A stretch of DNA of 38,460 nt from a virus, in IMG/VR virus record IMGVR_UViG_3300024432_000008. One strand, 5' to 3'. The translations under genes and the position numbers were made by a program. Below the pieces are notes generated by a model that was not told where the DNA came from, ran no database searches, and worked only from the letters and a program-made list of their open reading frames with translations. Shown here one piece after another: positions 243 through 38,460 of the stretch (positions within the stretch are counted from its first letter, which is position 1; the number at the start of each line of letters is the position of its first letter).

Positions 243-2204
243 ATGGCTGACATTATTTATGATATAGAATGCTATCCAAATATTTGGACTTTAATGGCGT
301 CTCCTTGTGATGATGACAACATGCATTATCTATTTGAAATCTCACCACGGGCAAATGATATTCATCGACTATTTGAATTTATAAGGTGGTGCAAATTCAA
401 CATGCATAGAATGGTTGGGTTTAATAATGTCGGTTATGATTATCCATTACTGCATTGGATGTTAAATGTTGATCCTAACAGATTTTCTCAATCTCAATTG
501 AACGAAATTATTTATGATAAATCAAACAGTATAATAACTACGCCATGGGAGAATCGTTTTTCAAATGTGATCTATGCTAACAAACAAATTGTTCCGCAAG
601 TAGATTTATTTAAAATTCATCATTTTGATAATACAAATAGACGAACCAGTTTGAAGCTATTAGAAATAAATATGCGACTTAGGTCTGTTCAAGATTTACC
701 ATTTCCACCAGGAACAGTATTAGACTTAGAACAAATGCAAGTTCTCGTTAATTACAATAAACATGATATTTATGCGACAAAAATGTTTTATTATAAATCT
801 TTAGATAAGATAAATTTTAGAGATGGGCTAACGAAAAAATATAATCGAGATTTTACCAATCATAATGATACTAAGATTGGTAAAGATTTTTTAGTAATGG
901 AGTTAGAAAAACGTCTTGGTCCAAATTGTTGTTATACCAAACCTGCGTTTAAACCTCGAAAAACAAACCAAACAATCTACGATAAACTTAAATTAGGTGA
1001 ATTAATCTTTCCAATAATTAAATTCAGAACAAAACAATTTAATGAAATTCTGGATTTCTTTAAAAGAACGGAGACAGCCGAAACTAAAGGCGCATTCGAA
1101 AAACTTTCATGTACTTTTCCCAGTGGTTTAGAATGTGTATTTGGTATGGGAGGAATCCATGCATTTAATAAACCAATGCATGCACAAAGTTGCAAAGAAT
1201 ATGCAATCATTGATCTAGATGCCAAGAGTTATTACCCTAGCTTAGGAATTGTAAATCGTTTATTTCCTGCGCATCTTTCTGAAGTTTTTTGTGATATTAT
1301 GTCAGAATTAAAAATCCAACGAGAACAATATGAGAAAGGAACATCTGAAAATAAAATGCTTAAATTAAGTTTAACCGGTTCATGGGGTTCGACTAACGAC
1401 TCGTGGAGTCCATTTTACGATAAAAAATACGCAATGCAGATCACTATCAATGGTCAGTTGCTTCTTTGTATGTTGGCCGAAATGATCATGTTGATACCTG
1501 ATACAATGATACTACAAATGAATACTGATGGTTTAACCGTCAAAATACCGAGAACACTTGAACCCATGTTAAAAGGGTATAAAAAAGAGTGGGAAAAGCT
1601 CACAGGTTTAATTTTGGAATCGCAATATTATAGTGATATGTATTTAAAGAATGTCAATGGTTATTTAGCTGTAGATGTTTTGGGCAATATTAAAAGGAAG
1701 AAGGATTATAACTATATTCGTGATTGGCATCAGAATCATTCAAAACTAGTCGTGCCTAAAGCTGCTGAAGCGCATTTAATAAGAGGTGTTGACATTGAGA
1801 CATTTTTATTAAATCATAAAGATGATTTTGATTTTTGTTTAAGTATAAGAATGACAAAACCTTGGATACTTAGATGGGGAGATATTCAAGTACAAGGAAC
1901 AAGTCGTTATTATATTTCAAAAACAGGTAAATCACTTGTCAGAACCGGTCCAGAATTATCGCGAATAACCAGAAAAAAACAAGAAATTTTAAAGAGTGAG
2001 ATTGAACAAGGTAGGAATGGGGAAGGATTATTTAAATTGACAAAATCAGGTGATCCCCAACCATTAACACCAGTTCCAAGAAAAATAAGATCGAATGTTA
2101 ACTGGAAGACAACAATTTGTAATGACGGTGTAATCGATAGATCGAATATTGATTATGATTTCTATATTGCAGAAGTTAGAAAATTAACTGACGGTGTAAA
2201 ATAA
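243..2204 (+). CDS. DNA polymerase with N-terminal 3'-5' exonuclease, family-B-like motif order
   Basis: Exo I YDIECYPN, Exo II GFNNVGYDYPLL, Exo III YNKHDIYAT. Motif A-like DLDAKSYYPS, motif B-like KLSLTGSWG, motif C-like QMNTDGLTV. Confidence 0.75.
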   Translation: MADIIYDIECYPNIWTLMASPCDDDNMHYLFEISPRANDIHRLFEFIRWCKFNMHRMVGFNNVGYDYPLLHWMLNVDPNRFSQSQLNEIIYDKSNSIITTPWENRFSNVIYANKQIVPQVDLFKIHHFDNTNRRTSLKLLEINMRLRSVQDLPFPPGTVLDLEQMQVLVNYNKHDIYATKMFYYKSLDKINFRDGLTKKYNRDFTNHNDTKIGKDFLVMELEKRLGPNCCYTKPAFKPRKTNQTIYDKLKLGELIFPIIKFRTKQFNEILDFFKRTETAETKGAFEKLSCTFPSGLECVFGMGGIHAFNKPMHAQSCKEYAIIDLDAKSYYPSLGIVNRLFPAHLSEVFCDIMSELKIQREQYEKGTSENKMLKLSLTGSWGSTNDSWSPFYDKKYAMQITINGQLLLCMLAEMIMLIPDTMILQMNTDGLTVKIPRTLEPMLKGYKKEWEKLTGLILESQYYSDMYLKNVNGYLAVDVLGNIKRKKDYNYIRDWHQNHSKLVVPKAAEAHLIRGVDIETFLLNHKDDFDFCLSIRMTKPWILRWGDIQVQGTSRYYISKTGKSLVRTGPELSRITRKKQEILKSEIEQGRNGEGLFKLTKSGDPQPLTPVPRKIRSNVNWKTTICNDGVIDRSNIDYDFYIAEVRKLTDGVK

Positions 2205-2569
2205 TGCCGTTAACATGTGGTTGTGATATGGATTCACCAGAACCAGGGCAAATATATTTTGATGATGGCCCTTCAGATTTTTCAGTCCTCAATACAATAC
2301 GAAGTCGAAAATGTTGTAATTGTGACATCAAGATCAAACCCGGTGTTATTGTAACAGAACATGTGCGGTATAAGGTGCCAAAATCCGATGTGGAAATTGC
2401 TATTTATGGTGAAGATGGTGAAATAGCCTGTGCATCTAAATTTTTATGTGAAAATTGTTCAGATATGTATTTTAATCTCAAAGATCGTGGGTATGATTGC
2501 ATCGGGCCTTGGGAAGTAACCGAATGCCTTAATGACTATATTGATATAACATATACAAGGAGAGGGTAA
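2204..2569 (+). CDS. Cys-rich hypothetical protein (possible zinc-binding)
   Basis: 121-aa ORF whose ATG overlaps the polymerase stop (ATAATG). Multiple CxC/CxxC pairs (CGC, CCNC, CENC). Confidence 0.55.
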   Translation: MPLTCGCDMDSPEPGQIYFDDGPSDFSVLNTIRSRKCCNCDIKIKPGVIVTEHVRYKVPKSDVEIAIYGEDGEIACASKFLCENCSDMYFNLKDRGYDCIGPWEVTECLNDYIDITYTRRG

Positions 2570-2665: not shown

Positions 2666-2755
2666 TATGTTTAAATATTTGTATATGGGTGTATATTTTA
2701 TGTTTCATGTGTATTTATTTGTGTGGTTAATATTAAAACTTATCTAGGGGTGTTT

Positions 2756-2986
2756 ATGAGTAAAAAATTTGAAACGATATTCCATACTGATGATTCAGTA
2801 GGTTCTTCCATATCTCTTGTTGAGTTGGAAGGTGATACAAAGTTTTGGGCATGGGCAGTTTATTTAAATCGTCTTGATTTGTGTATAAAAGGTAAGAAAA
2901 CAGAGTATTATTTTAAAACTCGTGAAAATGCCATGAATTTTTTTAAGGAGGTGAAGCACAAGGCTCTTCTTTCCAATGTAAAATAG
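2756..2986 (+). CDS. hypothetical protein
   Basis: Track ORF 2723..2986. The internal ATG at 2756 (MSKKFETIF...) is preceded by AGGGG. Confidence 0.5.
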   Translation: MSKKFETIFHTDDSVGSSISLVELEGDTKFWAWAVYLNRLDLCIKGKKTEYYFKTRENAMNFFKEVKHKALLSNVK

Positions 2987-3041
2987 AAGCAAAGAGTGGA
3001 GTTAGGTGTACTACAGATTAAATTATCTAAGGGTTAAAATT

Positions 3042-3332
3042 ATGCAAACATATCTTCAAGTTCATAAGACATGTCAACAAAATTTAGTTGGATGTGGAAT
3101 AGATGTTTATGTTGCGACAATGTCAAATCCAGATGAACTTTATTTTGGTAAGTATAAAGATAGGAGTTTGGAAACTTTTAAAGGTAGAAAAGGATATTGG
3201 ATTGTATGGGATGATGGGGAAATGAATGCAGCTAGGTTGGTAATAGATGAGAATGGGAAACCTGCTGGTTTCATTCCTAGAATGTTTTCTGATGGATCCG
3301 TTTATGGATATATTAAAAATGAGGGTATATAA
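3042..3332 (+). CDS. hypothetical protein
   Basis: Track ORF 3006..3332. ATG at 3042 (MQTYLQV...) is preceded by AAGGG. Confidence 0.5.
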   Translation: MQTYLQVHKTCQQNLVGCGIDVYVATMSNPDELYFGKYKDRSLETFKGRKGYWIVWDDGEMNAARLVIDENGKPAGFIPRMFSDGSVYGYIKNEGI

Positions 3333-4832: not shown

Positions 4833-5293
4833 ATCATCAAGATGATGGGTCCAAAATTGTTCAAGAGCACAAATTCAATTTCATTTGTCGCATTGAGTTG
4901 GAACTTAGGTCTGATGGTTCGATCCTTAAAGAAGAACCATGTGGAGGAAATACACAGGTTATGCATAGATATGGTAAAGGGCCATTTTCAAGATTCAAAA
5001 TTCCTACTGATATTCGTGATGAAGGCGTGCATATATTAATGAGCAATAACACCATCAAATATATAGGCGGAAGTACAAATTTTGCACGGAGTTATAACTC
5101 TGGATTTGGGAGAATAGCTATTAGATCAGCCCCGTTCATAGGTGGTAACGAAACGTATTGCCGAATCAATACATTAACATTAAATCAGATAGAATCGGGT
5201 TCAATTGTTGAGTTATGGTTTAAAAAAACCGCACAGTATCACAGGGTGAAATCTCGATTAATTCACAGGCTAAATCCTGGATGGAATCGTTAA
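4829..5293 (+). CDS. GIY-YIG-like nuclease domain protein (tentative)
   Basis: GVHILMSNNTIKYIGGSTNFARS resembles the GIY-(~10 aa)-YIG-...-R motif. The C-terminal LIHRLNPGWN resembles the LI..l.P.WN ending of the family. Confidence 0.4.
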   Translation: MNHQDDGSKIVQEHKFNFICRIELELRSDGSILKEEPCGGNTQVMHRYGKGPFSRFKIPTDIRDEGVHILMSNNTIKYIGGSTNFARSYNSGFGRIAIRSAPFIGGNETYCRINTLTLNQIESGSIVELWFKKTAQYHRVKSRLIHRLNPGWNR

Positions 5294-6690
5294 GTATGTG
5301 CAATCCCCCATACTGTAAACCTTCCAGATGTTATATTGCCGCTACTGAATAATACTTGAACTCTATCTAGTGTAATCGCAGCCAATCTTATTCCTCGAAA
5401 AGGTCCACCATGGTAAGCGGCACTAGCATTTTTATGGATAAAATCCCCTGTTATGGTTGGACCTTCTGAATCTGAGGGGATTATATCCCCTGTACCACCT
5501 ATTCCGTCAGCTGTAGTTACATTTAATGCAATTCCTATGTTTGAGGTGCCTGCATTTACCGAAGCTGCATATGCAGCTGAGGCTACTGTTACATTTGTGC
5601 TATGGTATGCGTAATCGGTGGCCCCACTGTCAATTCCTCCAGCATCGCCAACTCTCATCTGAAATGAAACATTATTTGATGAGGGTATCATTTTGACCCA
5701 TGCAAAAGCAAACCTATCGTATATAGTAGTATCAAGACCTGTTATTGTAAGTGAAGGGCTAGCAGAAGCTACCTTTGAATCTATTACTACCCATGAACCT
5801 TTAGCGCCATCAGCTTTGTTGATCGTACCAACGACAACATTTGCAGCAACTGATTGAAAATCGATAATGTCACCGGGAGCAGTAGTAAAATTGCTACCCC
5901 CATTATTCAAAGTTATACCCGCTCCTACTGTGATAGCTAATACACCGTCAAATTGAAGTTGAAAACGTCTATTTGTAGCAACGGTTATAGTTGCAAAACC
6001 CGTCGTTCCGGTCACATTGAAATAGTCACCATCAATACCTAAGATTAGAGGTGACGCTGAGGCCAGATCCCCACCTTTTGTTGAACCCACATAATTGTCG
6101 TTAGGATCGAGGAAGCCACCAAGCTGTGGTGATGTGTCATCGACAAGATTAATGGCCACAGGGGTGCCATTTGCCCTAGTGATGGCAACAATTCGAACAG
6201 TATTCGCAGCTGTAGAAAAACATTGGAATTGATCACCCGGACTGGTTGTGAAATTTGCACCACCTGGAATCACAATTGATGCACCATGGGTAACAACTAG
6301 TGCCCCATCGAATTGCAAAATGAAAAACCTATTTGCAGCAACTGTCATAACTGCAAACCCAGTCGTACCAGTCACATCAAAATAGTCACCATCAATACCT
6401 AAGACAAGAGGTGACGCTGAGGCCAGATCCCCACCTTTGTCCATACCGATAAAATTATCATTAGGATCCAGAAATCCTCCGAGTTGGGGTGATGTATCAT
6501 CAACAACGGCAGTTAGAGTACCGGGTGGTCCTTGCGGTCCTACATCACCTTTCAGTGTATTTCCACCTGTGGTAGATCCATCACCAACAAAAGCCTCATC
6601 TAAATCTTCATCATAAATATGTTCACCTTCTATCGGTGTATATCCAGTACGTTCTGCTGTAGTCACTAAAGGAATTGTATATAGTGCCAT
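5290..6690 (-). CDS. tail fibre protein with a short collagen-like stretch and a tandemly duplicated ~120-aa domain
   Basis: ATG at 6690 lies 10 nt after GGAGG. Fibre-type N-terminus ALYTIPLVTTAERTGYTPIEGEHIYDEDLDEAFVGDGSTTGG, then GPQGPPG. Two copies of VDDTSPQLGGFLDPNDN...GGDLASASPL.LGIDGDYF.VTGTTGF. Confidence 0.75.
   Translation of the reverse strand: MALYTIPLVTTAERTGYTPIEGEHIYDEDLDEAFVGDGSTTGGNTLKGDVGPQGPPGTLTAVVDDTSPQLGGFLDPNDNFIGMDKGGDLASASPLVLGIDGDYFDVTGTTGFAVMTVAANRFFILQFDGALVVTHGASIVIPGGANFTTSPGDQFQCFSTAANTVRIVAITRANGTPVAINLVDDTSPQLGGFLDPNDNYVGSTKGGDLASASPLILGIDGDYFNVTGTTGFATITVATNRRFQLQFDGVLAITVGAGITLNNGGSNFTTAPGDIIDFQSVAANVVVGTINKADGAKGSWVVIDSKVASASPSLTITGLDTTIYDRFAFAWVKMIPSSNNVSFQMRVGDAGGIDSGATDYAYHSTNVTVASAAYAASVNAGTSNIGIALNVTTADGIGGTGDIIPSDSEGPTITGDFIHKNASAAYHGGPFRGIRLAAITLDRVQVLFSSGNITSGRFTVWGIAHT
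5796..6506 (-). repeat. 360-bp (120-aa) tandem domain duplication inside the tail fibre gene
   Basis: AAATAGTCACCATCAATACCTAAGA occurs at 6020..6044 and 6380..6404. GAGGTGACGCTGAGGCCAGATCCCCACCTTT occurs at 6048..6078 and 6408..6438. The flanks are diverged. Confidence 0.85.
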
Positions 6691-33116: not shown

Positions 33117-33483
33117 TATGGAATTCCTCTTGATTTTTAACAAAACTACCTATCCCTGAGTTTTGTTTAACAATATTGATGAAATTTTGTTGGGCTTGGT
33201 CATTTTTATTTTTGAAATCAAATTTCCAATCAGGGTTTTTAATTTCAAGGGCTGTAAACACACCATAGGTATGACCACATGGGCACTTTATAGGTGTTAT
33301 ACCTATTAGATCGGAACTTTTAAATACGGTATTGATTTGATGTGAATCATTACCGAGTCCAAAACGTATGGGTGTTCCAGTAGTTGGATTTGGTAGCGTT
33401 CCTGAATTATTTCGCATAAGAAAAGAGTTAAATTTGGATAAGGAATGAATTCTTATCCATGATAGTAGCTGTCGTTCTGTCAT
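33100..33483 (-). CDS. VRR-NUC (PD-(D/E)xK) nuclease
   Basis: SSDLIGITP...GVFTALEIKNPD fits the D...E.K core. Lies directly downstream of an SF2 helicase, as is typical of phage VRR-NUC genes. Confidence 0.6.
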   Translation of the reverse strand: MTERQLLSWIRIHSLSKFNSFLMRNNSGTLPNPTTGTPIRFGLGNDSHQINTVFKSSDLIGITPIKCPCGHTYGVFTALEIKNPDWKFDFKNKNDQAQQNFINIVKQNSGIGSFVKNQEEFHNVYRK

Positions 33484-35093
33484 GATGTCACCTTTTGTAA
33501 CTTCGTAATTATTTGATCCAATTTATTACCACCTAATGATTGAGCTTCTAAAATACTAACACCTGTGAGAGTATAGAAAATCCTATAAATCTGACTATCT
33601 GAATTACCTATGAATTTTAGATTGCCCGCCCATTGAGTAATCATATCACGTAGTATATTTTGTTTGTCTCTTCGAACCCTTTGTTTTTTCAAAGCTGATA
33701 ATCTTATTATTTCTCCTTTGTTTCTTGGTGGTGGAGGTGGATTGTCAATTCTTTGTCTTTTTTTTCTTAATTCTTTTATTGAATCGATATGTAATTCTGT
33801 TAAATCCCCTTGTATTTGTTTAATTGTGGGCCTAGTATCCTTTGTTTTAGTAGCACCGCAATATGGGCATTCAGATAATTGAGAATCATATGGGGAGAAA
33901 CACTCCATACATATGGTTATTCCTAGGAAAAGATCATGATTTGTTTTTTTTCTTTTTGATTCGAGACTCCATTGTCTAAACATATCTGGAAGTCCATGTC
34001 GCATAACATTTCCAACATGATCGAGAATTATTGCATTTTTTTTATTTTCTGCAATTCGTAAACCTCGACCAAATTGTTGCATATAGAGATTTAATGATGC
34101 GGTCGGTCTTAAAAAACTAATACATCCGACACTAGGTAAGTCGTATCCTTCACCAAAAACATCAACATTTACTAATTGGAGTAAATTTCCTGATTTTAAT
34201 CTTTTTGATGCATTTACCCTATCTCTAATGGGTGTTTTTGCAGTGACCAACATTGCAGGTATACCTGCACTATTATATTTTTTAGTTGCAATTTTTGCTG
34301 ATTCTACATTAGCACAAAATGTTAACCCTCTTCTACCATCGGCATATCTTAGGTAATGTTTAATTGCGTCCCCTGTGATTGTTGATTGTTCAATAGCTTT
34401 TGCTAATTGTGCCCTTATAAAATCTCCAGAATTGGTAAGAGCAACCTTTGATAAATCTAGATTTGATGGTGGGCAAAAAATTCTATATGGTGTCAAAAAT
34501 CCCATATCGGTTAAGTCTACCAATGATGGTCCAATAAGCATAGTATTGAAAAGACCATCATTGGTAGATCCAAGACCATATTTGTCTTGTCTAGTTGGTG
34601 TAGCAGTAACGCCAAGTCCATTGGCATTAGAAAATGATTGGAGTACTTTACCCCATTTATTTTTCTTCAATACATGATGAGCTTCGTCAATGATCCACAT
34701 TTTAATTTTTTTAGCCCATTGTTGATAGTCAACTTTGTCAAGACGCCTTAATAAAGTATCGACACCTGCGATAGTTGTTGTTGAATAAGGATCGATATAT
34801 GATTTTTGAAAATTTTCGATTTGAAGTGTTGAGAATTCTTTAATGAGACTATTGGATGTGAGTATGTTGTGTCCTATCCCTATTGCTGCAAGGCTGAGAG
34901 AGATTTGACCGATTAATTCTTGTCGATGAGCAATAATGACTTGATGTTGAGTTGTATTATCAGCAATGATTGATGATAATACAATAGTTTTGCCGCCTCC
35001 CGTTGGCAATACGTACAGTACAGCTTTATTTCCTGAGTGCCAAGACTGATAAATCCTATGTTTATCATTAAGTTGGAACGATCTTAATTTCAT
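33480..35093 (-). CDS. SF2 DEAD/DEAH-box helicase with a C-terminal zinc ribbon
   Basis: Walker A LPTGGGKT, DEAH box IIDEAHH, motif III VTATP, motif VI QQFGRGLR, and CMEC...CPYC. Confidence 0.85.
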   Translation of the reverse strand: MKLRSFQLNDKHRIYQSWHSGNKAVLYVLPTGGGKTIVLSSIIADNTTQHQVIIAHRQELIGQISLSLAAIGIGHNILTSNSLIKEFSTLQIENFQKSYIDPYSTTTIAGVDTLLRRLDKVDYQQWAKKIKMWIIDEAHHVLKKNKWGKVLQSFSNANGLGVTATPTRQDKYGLGSTNDGLFNTMLIGPSLVDLTDMGFLTPYRIFCPPSNLDLSKVALTNSGDFIRAQLAKAIEQSTITGDAIKHYLRYADGRRGLTFCANVESAKIATKKYNSAGIPAMLVTAKTPIRDRVNASKRLKSGNLLQLVNVDVFGEGYDLPSVGCISFLRPTASLNLYMQQFGRGLRIAENKKNAIILDHVGNVMRHGLPDMFRQWSLESKRKKTNHDLFLGITICMECFSPYDSQLSECPYCGATKTKDTRPTIKQIQGDLTELHIDSIKELRKKRQRIDNPPPPPRNKGEIIRLSALKKQRVRRDKQNILRDMITQWAGNLKFIGNSDSQIYRIFYTLTGVSILEAQSLGGNKLDQIITKLQKVTS

Positions 35094-35157
35094 AATTTAT
35101 AAAAATCCTCTGTTTAAATTATTTTTTCTTGACTTGAAGAACAATATAAGCTAAAAC

Positions 35158-35509
35158 TTAAACCCAGTCAAGAGGGATTCTTGGAAAAGTCACTTGATTG
35201 GGTTTAAATAGCACGGGGAAGTGCGGAGTGGCCGCACGGTGTATCCGCAACTGCATACCGCCAACCTTTCTAACACAGTATAGGCTAGGGCGCGGACTGG
35301 AAAGCATTGCAATGGCGGGGATCACATCCCGCTCCCTGGTTTAAGCCTTTGGATGAGTAGATTGATATGGAGGGCCTTGTGGACGGTATCACCGTGACAC
35401 ATTTAAGTTCCCGGTCTACTCATCCTCTCCTCGTATTGCTAGATATTGGAAGGTAGACCATAGTGAAAGAGGGAAACACTTGTGATTAGACATTTCGAAG
35501 GGGTCCCCT
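35158..35509 (+). ncRNA. candidate structured RNA or long structured 5' leader of unknown class (G+C-rich, ORF-free island)
   Basis: No ORF of 60 aa or more in any frame. Hand count gives 34/60 and 37/60 G+C in 35221..35340, versus 15/60 in 35041..35100. Four helices, three with G.U pairs, only work on the plus strand (details in findings). Confidence 0.4.
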
Positions 35510-35791
35510 GTGATTTCGAAGGCGCGTTGTTTTATCGTGTCAGGTACAATCTTGGAAGGGGTGTTTTTGGGGATGGATTGTATCTGTATGCACAAGGATC
35601 TAGTGGTTTTTTGTATCGGTTTTGTTGAGCACAGAGGGGAGAAAAGACCTTGGCGAGTTTATCTTGGGCCTTTTCATAAGAAGGGTCAGAAAGACACTCG
35701 TTATTTCAAGAGTTTTAGAAGTGCTGCGAGATATTTTCGGGAGTTGGGGCGAAAGGCTTTGTTTTCTTCAAGAGTAAAGACATATTTATAA
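35510..35791 (+). CDS. hypothetical basic protein (possibly AP2-like DNA-binding; start uncertain, GTG 35510 or an internal ATG)
   Basis: GFVEHRGEKRPWRVYLGPFHKKGQKDTRYFKSFRSAARYFRELG loosely fits a three-strand-plus-helix AP2/Arm pattern. G-rich composition makes a noncoding alternative possible. Confidence 0.35.
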   Translation: MISKARCFIVSGTILEGVFLGMDCICMHKDLVVFCIGFVEHRGEKRPWRVYLGPFHKKGQKDTRYFKSFRSAARYFRELGRKALFSSRVKTYL

Positions 35792-35808
35792 TTTTAAAGG
35801 GAAAAGAA

Positions 35809-36474
35809 ATGAAAATCACATTTGATCCATCCAACTTAGATGATTGGTTAGCTGTACAAGAGATTATGGAGTTAACATCAGTACTTGAATCAGTACCTAC
35901 AGCTGCATCAGCAATGCAACCACCTACAGCTGCATCAGCAATGCAAGTTGTTGTACCGATACAGACGGCAGTACCAATGGTGCCATGTGATGCTAGTGGT
36001 GCGCCATGGAATCCACGATTTCACACAGATAGCAAAAACAAGACTAATAAAGGATTTTGGAAAAGAAGGAAAGGGGCATCTGTAGAAGAATATGATGCGT
36101 TTGCGAAATCATTTACAACTATAACAATACCGGCTCCACCTGCATCCATAGCTCCACCTGCATCCATAGCTCCACCTGCATCCATAGCTCCACCTGCATC
36201 CATAGCTCCACCTGCATCCATAGCTCCACCTGCATCCATAGCTCCACCTGCATCCATAGCTCCACCTGCAGTGCCACCTTTTATAGATGAGGATATGTTA
36301 ACAAAAATTGATGATTTATTTGCCGATATACAAGAGAAAGGTATAGTAGGTGATTTTGGGAACTGGTCGGTACAGATGTTGAACTGGTGTAAACCTGGAG
36401 CTAAAACAATATTAGATCTAACGGGAGATATACCTGCACAAGAGCAACTATTCAACCATTTGAGTTCTCTTTAA
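35809..36474 (+). CDS. two-domain protein with a (PPASIA)7 linker, function unknown
   Basis: RBS AAAGGGAAAAG lies before ATG 35809. Contains a PTAASAMQ x2 repeat, CDASGAPWNPRFHTDSKNKTNKGFWKRRKG, and then 7 perfect PPASIA units. Confidence 0.65.
   Translation: MKITFDPSNLDDWLAVQEIMELTSVLESVPTAASAMQPPTAASAMQVVVPIQTAVPMVPCDASGAPWNPRFHTDSKNKTNKGFWKRRKGASVEEYDAFAKSFTTITIPAPPASIAPPASIAPPASIAPPASIAPPASIAPPASIAPPASIAPPAVPPFIDEDMLTKIDDLFADIQEKGIVGDFGNWSVQMLNWCKPGAKTILDLTGDIPAQEQLFNHLSSL
36133..36270 (+). repeat. 18-bp perfect tandem repeat GCTCCACCTGCATCCATA x7 plus a 12-bp partial copy
   Basis: Seven identical units run 36133..36258, with a partial unit at 36259..36270. In frame (APPASI). Confidence 0.95.
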
Positions 36475-37649: not shown

Positions 37650-38460
37650 AGATGTTATTACGTTCCCCCCTGGACGCGTTATCTCTGGTAATTTAACAGA
37701 ATTGCAACCAATCATAAAATATTCTGAAGATCCAAAGGTTAAAGAACCTGAATTACATGGTGATGGTTCACCAAAATTGGGGTATTGGTTTAGAATTGCT
37801 ATTCCAAAAAGTTCACCTGAACTTTTTGGTGGTGCTAATGGTGATGGAATTTTAACATTGTTAGCGAGTATAGCTAAAAGACCTTGGCCGACAGATTTAA
37901 ATAATGATAGTTTTTCATGGAAGATAAAGGATGGGGATGGTTTCCAGGATAATAATCAACTATATTCAGAATATTGCAGAGGATGCTTTTTGTTTACAGT
38001 ACGAAGCAGTTGGGTCCCGACATTAGTCGAACCAGATAATAATGGTGGCTGGCAACAAATGCTTGACATATCCAAGTTATATGTTGGGTGTCATGTTAGG
38101 GTTGGGATTTCTAGTGTTAACAATATGAATAGGTCTAAACCTGGGATCTATTTAAATCCTGAATTTGTAGCATTGATTAAACAAGATGATCCAATAACAC
38201 CGAATCAAATTCCAATTAGTGATGTTTCTAATTATCTGGGAATATCAATGAAATTATCAACAGTTCCATATCCGGGAATATCTCAGGCTTCGCAGGCTGT
38301 CGTACCACCTGTAGCGATGCAGCAGAGACCTGACGATGTGCCATTTGAAACATCTATATTGACGCAATCACCTGCACCTGCACCTGCACCTGCACCTGCA
38401 CCTGCACCTGCACCTGCACCTGCACCTGAACCTGCACCTGCACCTGCACCTGCACCTGCA
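37639..38460 (+). CDS. gp2.5 / DUF2815-type ssDNA-binding-like protein, open at the window end inside the (PA)n linker
   Basis: ATG 37639 overlaps the upstream ORF's end. 274 codons reach base 38460 with no stop (absent from the ORF track). Contains GRVISGNLTELQP...YWFRIAIPKSSPE and lies after the DUF2800-type nuclease. Confidence 0.55.
   Translation, partial: MSIKDVITFPPGRVISGNLTELQPIIKYSEDPKVKEPELHGDGSPKLGYWFRIAIPKSSPELFGGANGDGILTLLASIAKRPWPTDLNNDSFSWKIKDGDGFQDNNQLYSEYCRGCFLFTVRSSWVPTLVEPDNNGGWQQMLDISKLYVGCHVRVGISSVNNMNRSKPGIYLNPEFVALIKQDDPITPNQIPISDVSNYLGISMKLSTVPYPGISQASQAVVPPVAMQQRPDDVPFETSILTQSPAPAPAPAPAPAPAPAPAPEPAPAPAPAPA
38371..38460 (+). repeat. (CCTGCA)x15 hexanucleotide repeat with one variant unit (CCTGAA, 38425..38430)
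   Basis: In-frame (Pro-Ala)n that runs to the last base of the window. Confidence 0.95.

Follow-up and report, generated by a model that had tools for sequence, protein, structure and literature searches.

A candidate structured RNA module next to a predicted early promoter in a metagenomic phage genome and its relatives

Phages settle the course of their transcription in the early control region, which is also a site where anti-defence genes are concentrated. Among the RNAs described there, the HK022 put RNAs and the lambdoid nut sites (boxA plus a boxB hairpin) are cis-acting antitermination signals in early phage leaders, and tRNA-like stable RNAs also occur in phages, for example the species 1 and 2 RNAs of T4. 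Here we analyze a G+C-rich island at 35158-35509 of a metagenomic phage contig (IMG/VR record IMGVR_UViG_3300024432_000008; ENA ERZ27251131, k141_447307; 38.4 kb, 37% G+C), whose whole stretch of 38,460 nucleotides (nt) is called the window throughout. The island sits in a 715-nt gap between the start of a leftward helicase gene and the first long rightward gene at 35809, and an initial annotation had proposed that it is a plus-strand structured RNA of no known class, downstream of TTGACT-N17-TAAAAC and upstream of replication genes. That description holds for one part of it, which lies ahead of both replication and recombination genes: our comparisons make it plausible that the island contains a real candidate structured RNA outside Rfam, conserved over 35213-35340 and with few copies.

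Relatives of the locus were found via helicase homologues, which gave four close relatives (L003, L004, L007 and L008, with helicase protein identities of 95%, 84%, 81% and 80%, respectively) and four more distant ones (L009, L011, L012 and L013, 60-63%). Two further contigs came from other searches: L015 from a degenerate three-block pattern in the JGI metagenomes, which also returned one random match, and L029 from following the small basic protein that adjoins the L015 module. A covariance model (R1) built from the alignment of the module copies scored six full copies at 120-163 bits, those of the window, L003, L004, L007, L015 and L029. Additionally, L008 carries an internal-deletion variant (61 bits), a half-copy in L007 and two copies centred on the fourth helix in L012 (L012A and L012B) match at E ~1e-3, and none of 15 other related loci matched. 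The initial annotation had named a lack of conservation outside this genome as evidence against its proposal; the module is found in five other metagenomic contigs. It is nevertheless rare: neither BLASTN with the gap as query against INPHARED phages nor BLASTN with the core against PLSDB plasmids gave a match, exact and degenerate DNA patterns in IMG/VR gave none or just random matches in G+C-rich contigs, the three-block pattern in GTDB genomes gave a random match alone, and the IMG/VR loci with an SNF2 helicase related to that of L015 do not carry the module. A chimeric peptide from the six-frame translation of the module, used in a protein search aimed at spurious open reading frame (ORF) calls over copies, also gave no scoring match.

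According to the covariance model and the pair counts, the module comprises four helices, P1 to P4, in about 130 nt of the plus strand (35213-35340). P1 (CGGGGA/UCCCUG, 35214-35219 with 35333-35338) is the closing helix in every copy; its sequence and register vary (ACGGGG/CCUCGU in L004, CAGGG/CCCUG in L015, AUUGAGG/CCUCAAU in L012A and CCAUAG/CUAUGG in L012B), but the helix is always present. It is followed by the P2 hairpin, GUGCGG-AGUGG-CCGCAC (35221-35237; 35221-35226 with 35232-35237), in which L003 has GCAUG/CAUGC instead of GUGCG/CGCAC at the same columns, with three pairs changed on both sides, and L029 has one G.U. At the base of the P3 arm (35247-35310) there is tentatively a helix, P3a, in which 35247-35254 pairs with 35304-35310. 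Above it, a CCGC/GCGG clamp (35258-35261 with 35292-35295), invariant save one G.U, encloses an inner hairpin (35265-35290) whose length and sequence vary. Three sequence families, unrelated to each other, occur in this inner hairpin, and all of them fold; in L004 the tip is extended by GGGC-GAGA-GCCC, and L003 and L029 differ by a U-A to C-G change. P4, GCGGG-GAUCACAU-CCCGC (35315-35332; 35315-35320 with 35327-35332), is the most conserved piece, and its loop consensus, G-(A/U)-U-(C/G)-A-C-(A/G)-U, holds in every variant, the half-copy of L007 and the two L012 copies among them; the stem of L003 shows a compensatory C-G to A-U change. A conserved A-rich strand, AAGCAUUGCAAU, precedes P4, and the 3' strand of P4 runs directly into that of P1, so that the two helices could stack coaxially into 11-12 base pairs (bp). 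A pseudoknot between the P4 loop and the P2-P3 joining strand, and alternative P2 pairings, were considered and set aside, as by eye neither is conserved in L003 and L029. A weak likeness to a CRISPR repeat, as in an RNA anti-CRISPR, was also set aside. At the position of the P3 arm, the diverged copy L012A has a tandem repeat, (ACATACGG) x5, at 1186-1226 of the plus strand.

Two of the helices in the initial annotation, (b) and (c), correspond to P2 and P4. Both were given correctly, as 6 bp each with one G.T in (c), and both show compensatory changes in the relatives. That description did not include P1, which closes the module, or the long P3 arm, which is variable, nor did it recognise that the module is accessory and exchanged between phages. 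In the six full copies, on which all pair statistics are based, 93.8% of the pair cells are standard, as compared to 32-54% when the partners are slid by 1-3 columns. Six pairs show double-sided changes, a number reached by 3 of 500 column shuffles, and three of the double changes in P2 and one in P4 all come from L003. The same copies contain 11 G.U and two A.C cells, which identifies the plus strand as the folded one, as the initial annotation had argued from its wobble pairs. The sequence is also unusual in composition, since 35211-35340 has 59% G+C against a window mean of 37% (standard deviation 6%), about 3.5 standard deviations above; it is among the highest values in the window and the sole such peak outside coding repeats. 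A recount gave exactly the G+C values reported earlier (34/60 for 35221-35280, 37/60 for 35281-35340 and 15/60 for 35041-35100). The core is noncoding: no reading frame is conserved in it, six-frame translations show stops, the frame differs between copies, and the length differences of P3 (4-10 nt) are never a multiple of three, which causes frame shifts between copies.

The absence from known families that the initial annotation had stated for tRNA, transfer-messenger RNA (tmRNA) and other classes was borne out by the Rfam scan that it had proposed. No match was obtained with Rfam 15 (4227 models) in the whole window at gathering score, only noise appeared at E up to 10 in 34900-36000 and 35150-35480, and in the loci with other copies only a tRNA in L012, outside the module, was found. 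The Rfam tRNA and tmRNA models gave no match at E up to 10, nor did the C4 model (RF01695), and ARAGORN found no tRNA or tmRNA in the window or in 10 loci. A literature search on the hairpin sequence and on surveys of structured phage RNAs found nothing relevant. The tRNA-like gene of L012 (2339-2417, plus strand) scores 37.6 bits with the Rfam tRNA model, although ARAGORN does not report it; it folds into a clean cloverleaf whose D stem has 7 bp and whose anticodon loop is GAUUUAA, its anticodon reads UUU (Lys-like), position 33 is A, and the P4-like hairpin of L012B immediately precedes it.

The location of the module with respect to promoters is also a recurrent feature. In four independent contexts, P1 is preceded at a distance of 12-50 nt by the end of a strong sigma-70 promoter: TTGACA-N17-TATAGT in L015 (11/12 consensus positions, ending 15 nt before P1), TTGATA-N17-TATAGT in L029, TTGACA-N17-TATGAT in L012A (11/12) and TTGACT-N17-TAAAAC, with conserved hexamers, in the group of the window. 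P1 begins 12-15 nt past the -10 box in L015, L029 and L012A. In the window, TTGACT-N17-TAAAAC (35129-35157, plus strand) is the sole candidate promoter for the plus-strand operon. It is not called by the promoter scan because position 6 of its -10 box is C; in L003, L004, L007 and L008 the hexamers are the same or almost the same, with spacers that differ at 6-7 positions, and distant relatives hold TTGACT-N17-TAnAnn directly ahead of their first gene. No other plus-strand promoter was predicted between the module and the downstream genes of the window, and therefore transcription of these genes must traverse the module.

The surroundings of the module differ widely between genomes. L015 and L029 represent two contexts unrelated to the window group: in L015 the module follows an SNF2 helicase gene and precedes that of a small basic protein, and in L029 it lies between a tyrosine integrase gene and an early operon, in a contig that also has a KfrA-like gene. 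In L015 and L012 the modules lie between co-directional genes. Directly 3' of the module the genes include the frameshifted gene of the window for a protein of 102 amino acids (aa), ORFs of 52, 58, 66 and 188 aa, a basic 88-aa protein and a 109-aa protein. Since these genes differ in every genome, the earlier suggestion of a dedicated regulator of the replication operon is probably not correct. Furthermore, the helicase genes of L004 and L007 are 84-85% identical in DNA to that of the window, yet 48 of 49 module positions are identical, whereas L003, with a 95.8% identical helicase gene, has a strongly diverged module allele that shares 14 of 49 and 30 of 48 positions and keeps the fold. Judged by these sequence comparisons, the history of the module is discordant with that of its flanks and points to an accessory, horizontally exchanged element at cassette boundaries. 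The 3' flank TGGTTTGATTTTYAGA is common to L007, L015 and L029. In L007 a half-copy (526-600, minus strand), containing the 3' half of the module, follows an inserted 66-aa ORF that is homologous to an 80-aa ORF ahead of the L015 module; it consists of P4 and a T-run and is the only module-derived sequence called as an intrinsic terminator. Small Arg/Lys-rich proteins (RGxDKxKRKxRxY...LKL...WV...SKFI) adjoin the module in L015 (genes at 2739-3056 and 5228-5491), L012 (854-1009) and L029 (3215-3451).

Our tentative preference, which we hold with somewhat less than even confidence, is that the module acts in cis, in the manner of nut and put, to control elongation, termination or the stability of the transcript. 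As with put and nut sites, it is a structured RNA immediately past an early promoter and ahead of early genes, its short linear motif AAGCAUUGCAAU is followed by a hairpin with a conserved loop, P4, and its specificity-like alleles are swapped between phages; the small Arg/Lys-rich protein gene after the module in L015 and L029 recalls the order of lambda PL, nutL and N. The promoter-adjacent site, the P1-closed fold and the conserved P4 loop lead us to regard it as a probable transcribed leader domain that a protein or RNA polymerase would recognise, and the A-rich strand before P4, the heterogeneous downstream genes and the U-rich tail found after P1 in several lineages (L003, L004 and the L015/L029/L007 group) point in the same direction. 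We infer that transcription from TTGACT-N17-TAAAAC would make the module the first structured segment of the rightward early operon, preceded on the transcript of this genome by the promoter-derived hairpin called helix (a) in the initial annotation, and that this accessory, horizontally exchanged leader module would act in cis on its own transcript. As to the mechanism, the P4 loop and the A-rich strand would be presented to a protein or to RNA polymerase, and the module would set the amount of transcription or of stable mRNA that reaches the small, variable early genes and, after them, the replication genes. The outcome could be attenuation or nut/put-like antitermination or, alternatively, the module could be a processing or stability signal.

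Several observations weigh against cis control of this kind. The module occurs once per genome in contrast to the paired nutL/nutR and putL/putR sites; the window has a single copy and not two sites in separate early operons, and L012 and L007, with two copies each, have both on the same strand. It is a four-helix RNA of ~130 nt, compared to ~70 nt for put and 15-nt hairpins for boxB, it has no boxA-like sequence, and the small basic protein of L015, L029 and L012 is absent from the window phage, there being no partner protein common to all genomes. No intrinsic terminator was called after the module in the window (34900-36000), and of seven lineages just three have a strong U-rich tail. As for the structure itself, the copies represent only about four independent sequence lineages, with most of the covariation supplied by L003, and the pairing statistics carry little weight because the structure was derived from these same sequences. 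P3a shows no covariation and has four unpaired cells among the six full copies. The core alone (35208-35350) has a fold energy z of ~0 on the plus strand, that is, no thermodynamic excess, so the support for it is comparative and not energetic. Lastly, the near-identity between copies could stem from recent transfer and not from selection. A riboswitch would share with the module a G+C-rich structured 5' leader in an A+T-rich genome, as G+C-rich intergenic motifs also do, together with a multi-helix junction, conserved joining strands and a variable stem; however, the genes downstream of the module are unrelated and suggest no ligand, no terminator or ribosome-binding-site hairpin is conserved as an expression platform, and the copies are very few.

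The main rival explanation, possible but unlikely in our view, is that the module is an independent small RNA gene acting in trans. This gene would comprise the promoter, a 130-190-nt RNA and a leaky terminator, with the downstream genes expressed by read-through only, and its product would be an immunity or antisense RNA like P1 c4 and P4 CI, or an RNase P-processed mimic of a tRNA acceptor/T-arm serving as a decoy for a host enzyme or a defence system. The short distance from the -10 box to P1 in L015, L029 and L012A and the U-rich tails past P1 would suit such a gene, as would the P1-P4 stack of 11-12 bp with a 7-8-nt loop, which is the sole part retained in the mini-variants L012B and L008, the former directly beside the tRNA-like gene. 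The module is also accessory and allelic, is traded among phages and plasmid-like contigs, and lies in a hypervariable locus of small early ORFs. Like the c4 RNAs of P1 and P7 and the CI RNA of P4, the module is located within the leader of the operon that would be controlled, has paired ends in a closed tRNA-like fold and allelic variants between related elements, and belongs to temperate or plasmid-like elements, L029 having both an integrase and a KfrA-like gene. On the other hand, it is longer than these RNAs, the C4 model does not match it, and no complementary target boxes were found nearby. In five of the six copies no complement of at least 9 nt was found within 600 nt downstream or 150 nt upstream, a search that boxes of 6-8 nt would escape, and the one match, in L029, is probably due to chance. 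Duplex energies were unexceptional in five of the six copies (z -0.1 to +0.7), and the z of -2.7 in the window reflects window-specific downstream pairing. Targets in cis of the c4 type were therefore set aside, as neither the complement nor the duplex searches gave anything convincing. The lack of a called terminator past the module in the window, L003 and L029 also speaks against an independent gene.

A related proposal, which we find rather improbable, combines both kinds of action: a new class of self-contained RNA cassette close to promoters, at whose centre the P1-P4 stack would mimic the acceptor/T-arm minihelix of a tRNA. Its alleles would be traded by phages and plasmid-like elements of one community, and it would serve either as a trans-acting immunity or anti-defence decoy or as an RNase P-cut control of the operon. 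The module resembles a tRNA in its four-way junction, in its 3' hairpin set against the closing stem as the T-arm is on the acceptor stem and in the GG of its P2 loop, and a related mini-copy lies next to the tRNA-like gene of L012. The resemblance is limited, since P2 has 6 bp and a 5-nt loop, where a tRNA has its anticodon arm the module has a variable arm of 40-60 nt, the UUCRA pattern of a canonical T-loop is missing from the P4 loop GAUCACAU, there is no CCA end, and the module is negative with ARAGORN and Rfam.

It is equally doubtful that the module is a functionless young insert, such as a decaying remnant of a tRNA-like or structured RNA or a selfish G+C-rich insert spread by recombination. 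Type-A copies are nearly identical, as recent transfer would give, the distribution is patchy and includes the deletion variant of L008 and the half-copy of L007, and the core fold energy is unexceptional. The module is also rare, as the searches of the IMG/VR, GTDB, INPHARED and PLSDB collections found no copy and that of JGI gave one match. Nevertheless, the diverged alleles (L003, the P3 of L029, L012A and L012B) retain the helices and the P4 loop consensus, which decay would not preserve, and chance would hardly account for the constant place of the module just past strong promoters in four contexts. An attP site or a host-derived tRNA fragment was also considered and rejected; the scanned window ORFs contain no Pfam integrase and no GTDB genome matched.

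Function at the DNA level, as a replication origin or single-strand priming signal, as an operator array of GCGG/CCGC motifs or as a recombination linker, is very unlikely. The island is a G+C-rich segment of an A+T-rich genome at the point where the helicase/primase and exonuclease/polymerase genes diverge, several GCGG/CCGC motifs can be read in it, and it sits at recombination joints, as shown by the duplicated 3' half that flanks the inserted ORF of L007 and by the 3' flank shared by L007, L015 and L029. However, the module cannot be an essential origin because relatives with 61-63% identical helicases are without it and have only the two promoters in a gap of 107-137 nt; L008 survives with half of the module deleted, and in L015 and L012 the module lies between co-directional genes. 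The double changes in P2 and P4, the variable-length hairpin and the 11:2 excess of G.U over A.C point instead to a single-stranded plus-strand RNA.

That the whole of 35158-35509, helices (a) to (d) and the repeat, forms one structured RNA serving as a riboswitch-like leader of the replication operon is hardly credible and, on the comparative data, already contradicted, because although every helix described exists and the 381-nt segment 35150-35530 folds better than shuffles (z -3.1 on the plus strand, -2.25 on the minus strand), all relatives lack the sequence 3' of 35341 including helix (d), the repeat codes for protein, L007 is without helix (a), and the core is followed by different genes in every genome, which speaks against a riboswitch specific to one gene. 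The single 352-nt RNA of the initial annotation is thus abandoned, and its island is best described as four parts: the promoters with helix (a), the module, hairpins private to this genome and a small gene.

In the first of these parts, the rightward promoter overlaps back-to-back with a helicase promoter, TTGACT-N17-TATATT (35143-35171, minus strand; 10/12 consensus positions), and the same site was called in L007 and L003. Helix (a) (35158-35207, plus strand) is a hairpin of exactly 15 bp with one G.T and a 20-nt loop, as first described, and was recovered by the inverted-repeat search as I1 (z = -4.4 on the plus strand and -4.1 on the minus strand). It is predicted to fall at the 5' end of the rightward transcript or close to it. 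The 3' arm repeats in inverted orientation the 20-nt sequence TTGACTGGGTTTAAGTTTTA, which comprises the -35 box and spacer of the helicase promoter. It is kept in three of the four close relatives (L003, L004 and L008), with pair-preserving changes (G.U to G-C, and CC/GG to UU/AG in L008), and L007 has replaced the 3' arm. The hairpin is real, but it is an inverted duplication of promoter DNA, and a dispensable one because L007 does without it. In L009, L011 and L013 the gap of only 107-137 nt holds two back-to-back TTGACT promoters followed by an MxITFDP gene. The divergent early promoters of these three form a near-perfect palindrome, TTCTTGACTTGTATTT...AAATACAAGTCAAGAA (L013 175-245, L011 180-235 and L009 2925-2985; minus-strand reads), which suggests a shared operator or a symmetric promoter pair.

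The sequence 3' of 35341 is not common to the relatives, each of which carries a different small ORF there. Helix (d) (35351-35425, plus strand; inverted repeat I3) was reported correctly as 14 bp with two T.G pairs enclosing an ACGGT/ACCGT hairpin, and has z = -3.7 on the plus strand and -2.3 on the minus strand. It was rejected as a member of the family, as it has no counterpart in L003, L004, L007, L008, L015 or L029, nor upstream of the homologous gene in L018. Between 35426 and 35481 both the minimum free energy and the centroid folds of 35341-35481 contain a hairpin that pairs CUCUCCUC with AGAGGGA, the ribosome-binding site of the 35482 gene; this prediction is from a single sequence and could represent a translational control element. 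The claim that the gap is free of ORFs was correct insofar as no ORF of at least 60 aa lies inside it and the core 35213-35340 is noncoding. However, a homologue-supported gene begins at GTG 35482, so that the initial annotation's next plus-strand ORF at 35510 is merely the second half of this gene. A profile search with this 93-aa ORF found a 101-aa homologue, P0122, whose N-terminal half matches the other frame of the window (ORF 35482-35628). When one T is removed from the T6 run at 35607-35612, a continuous 102-aa protein (35482-35791, plus strand) results, which is 60% identical to P0122 over 80 aa (E = 3e-33) in an alignment that crosses the junction. The frameshift could be due to an assembly error, a pseudogene or programmed slippage. 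The direct repeat that had been noted around a dyad, and whose true start is 35481, turns out to be coding sequence of this gene and encodes RHFEG and CDFEG; a conserved coding frame, which would have spoken for a protein in place of an RNA, is thus present only in 35482-35791. Helix (d), the predicted ribosome-binding-site hairpin and the direct repeat therefore seem to belong to a separate cassette (35341-35791) private to this genome. The 1799-aa protein P0121 contains as many as 10 repeats of P0122-like units, and a paralogue of the 35482 gene, 35% identical, lies at 2780-2977, near the polymerase gene.

The remainder of the window contains portal, terminase and head genes and a replication module, in which the SF2 helicase gene (33480-35093, minus strand) is accompanied by a D5/PriCT-type primase, a DUF2800 nuclease and a family-A polymerase with less than 45% identity to that of the nearest cultured phages. 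The first long rightward gene (plus strand, from 35809) encodes a 221-aa protein with PPASIA tandem repeats (36119-36277), of which there are about eight in the window and two in L003 (~2190-2240, minus strand); this is a peptide repeat that varies in copy number between genomes with 95% identical helicases. Hexanucleotide repeats reading VQVQVQ... occur at both ends of the window (38354-38455 and 1-120), the terminal 27 nt being identical, which is consistent with a circular or terminally redundant assembly broken inside a repeat.

If the module were merely a young hitchhiking insert, it would be of minor interest. If it is functional, it would represent a new RNA family in the region that controls early phage genes, and one that could easily be tested in reporter or in vitro transcription assays, since it is small and modular and has natural alleles and deletion variants. 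In addition, its discordant phylogeny marks a recombination boundary at which cassettes of early genes are shuffled, and this bears on how mosaic phage genomes are assembled.

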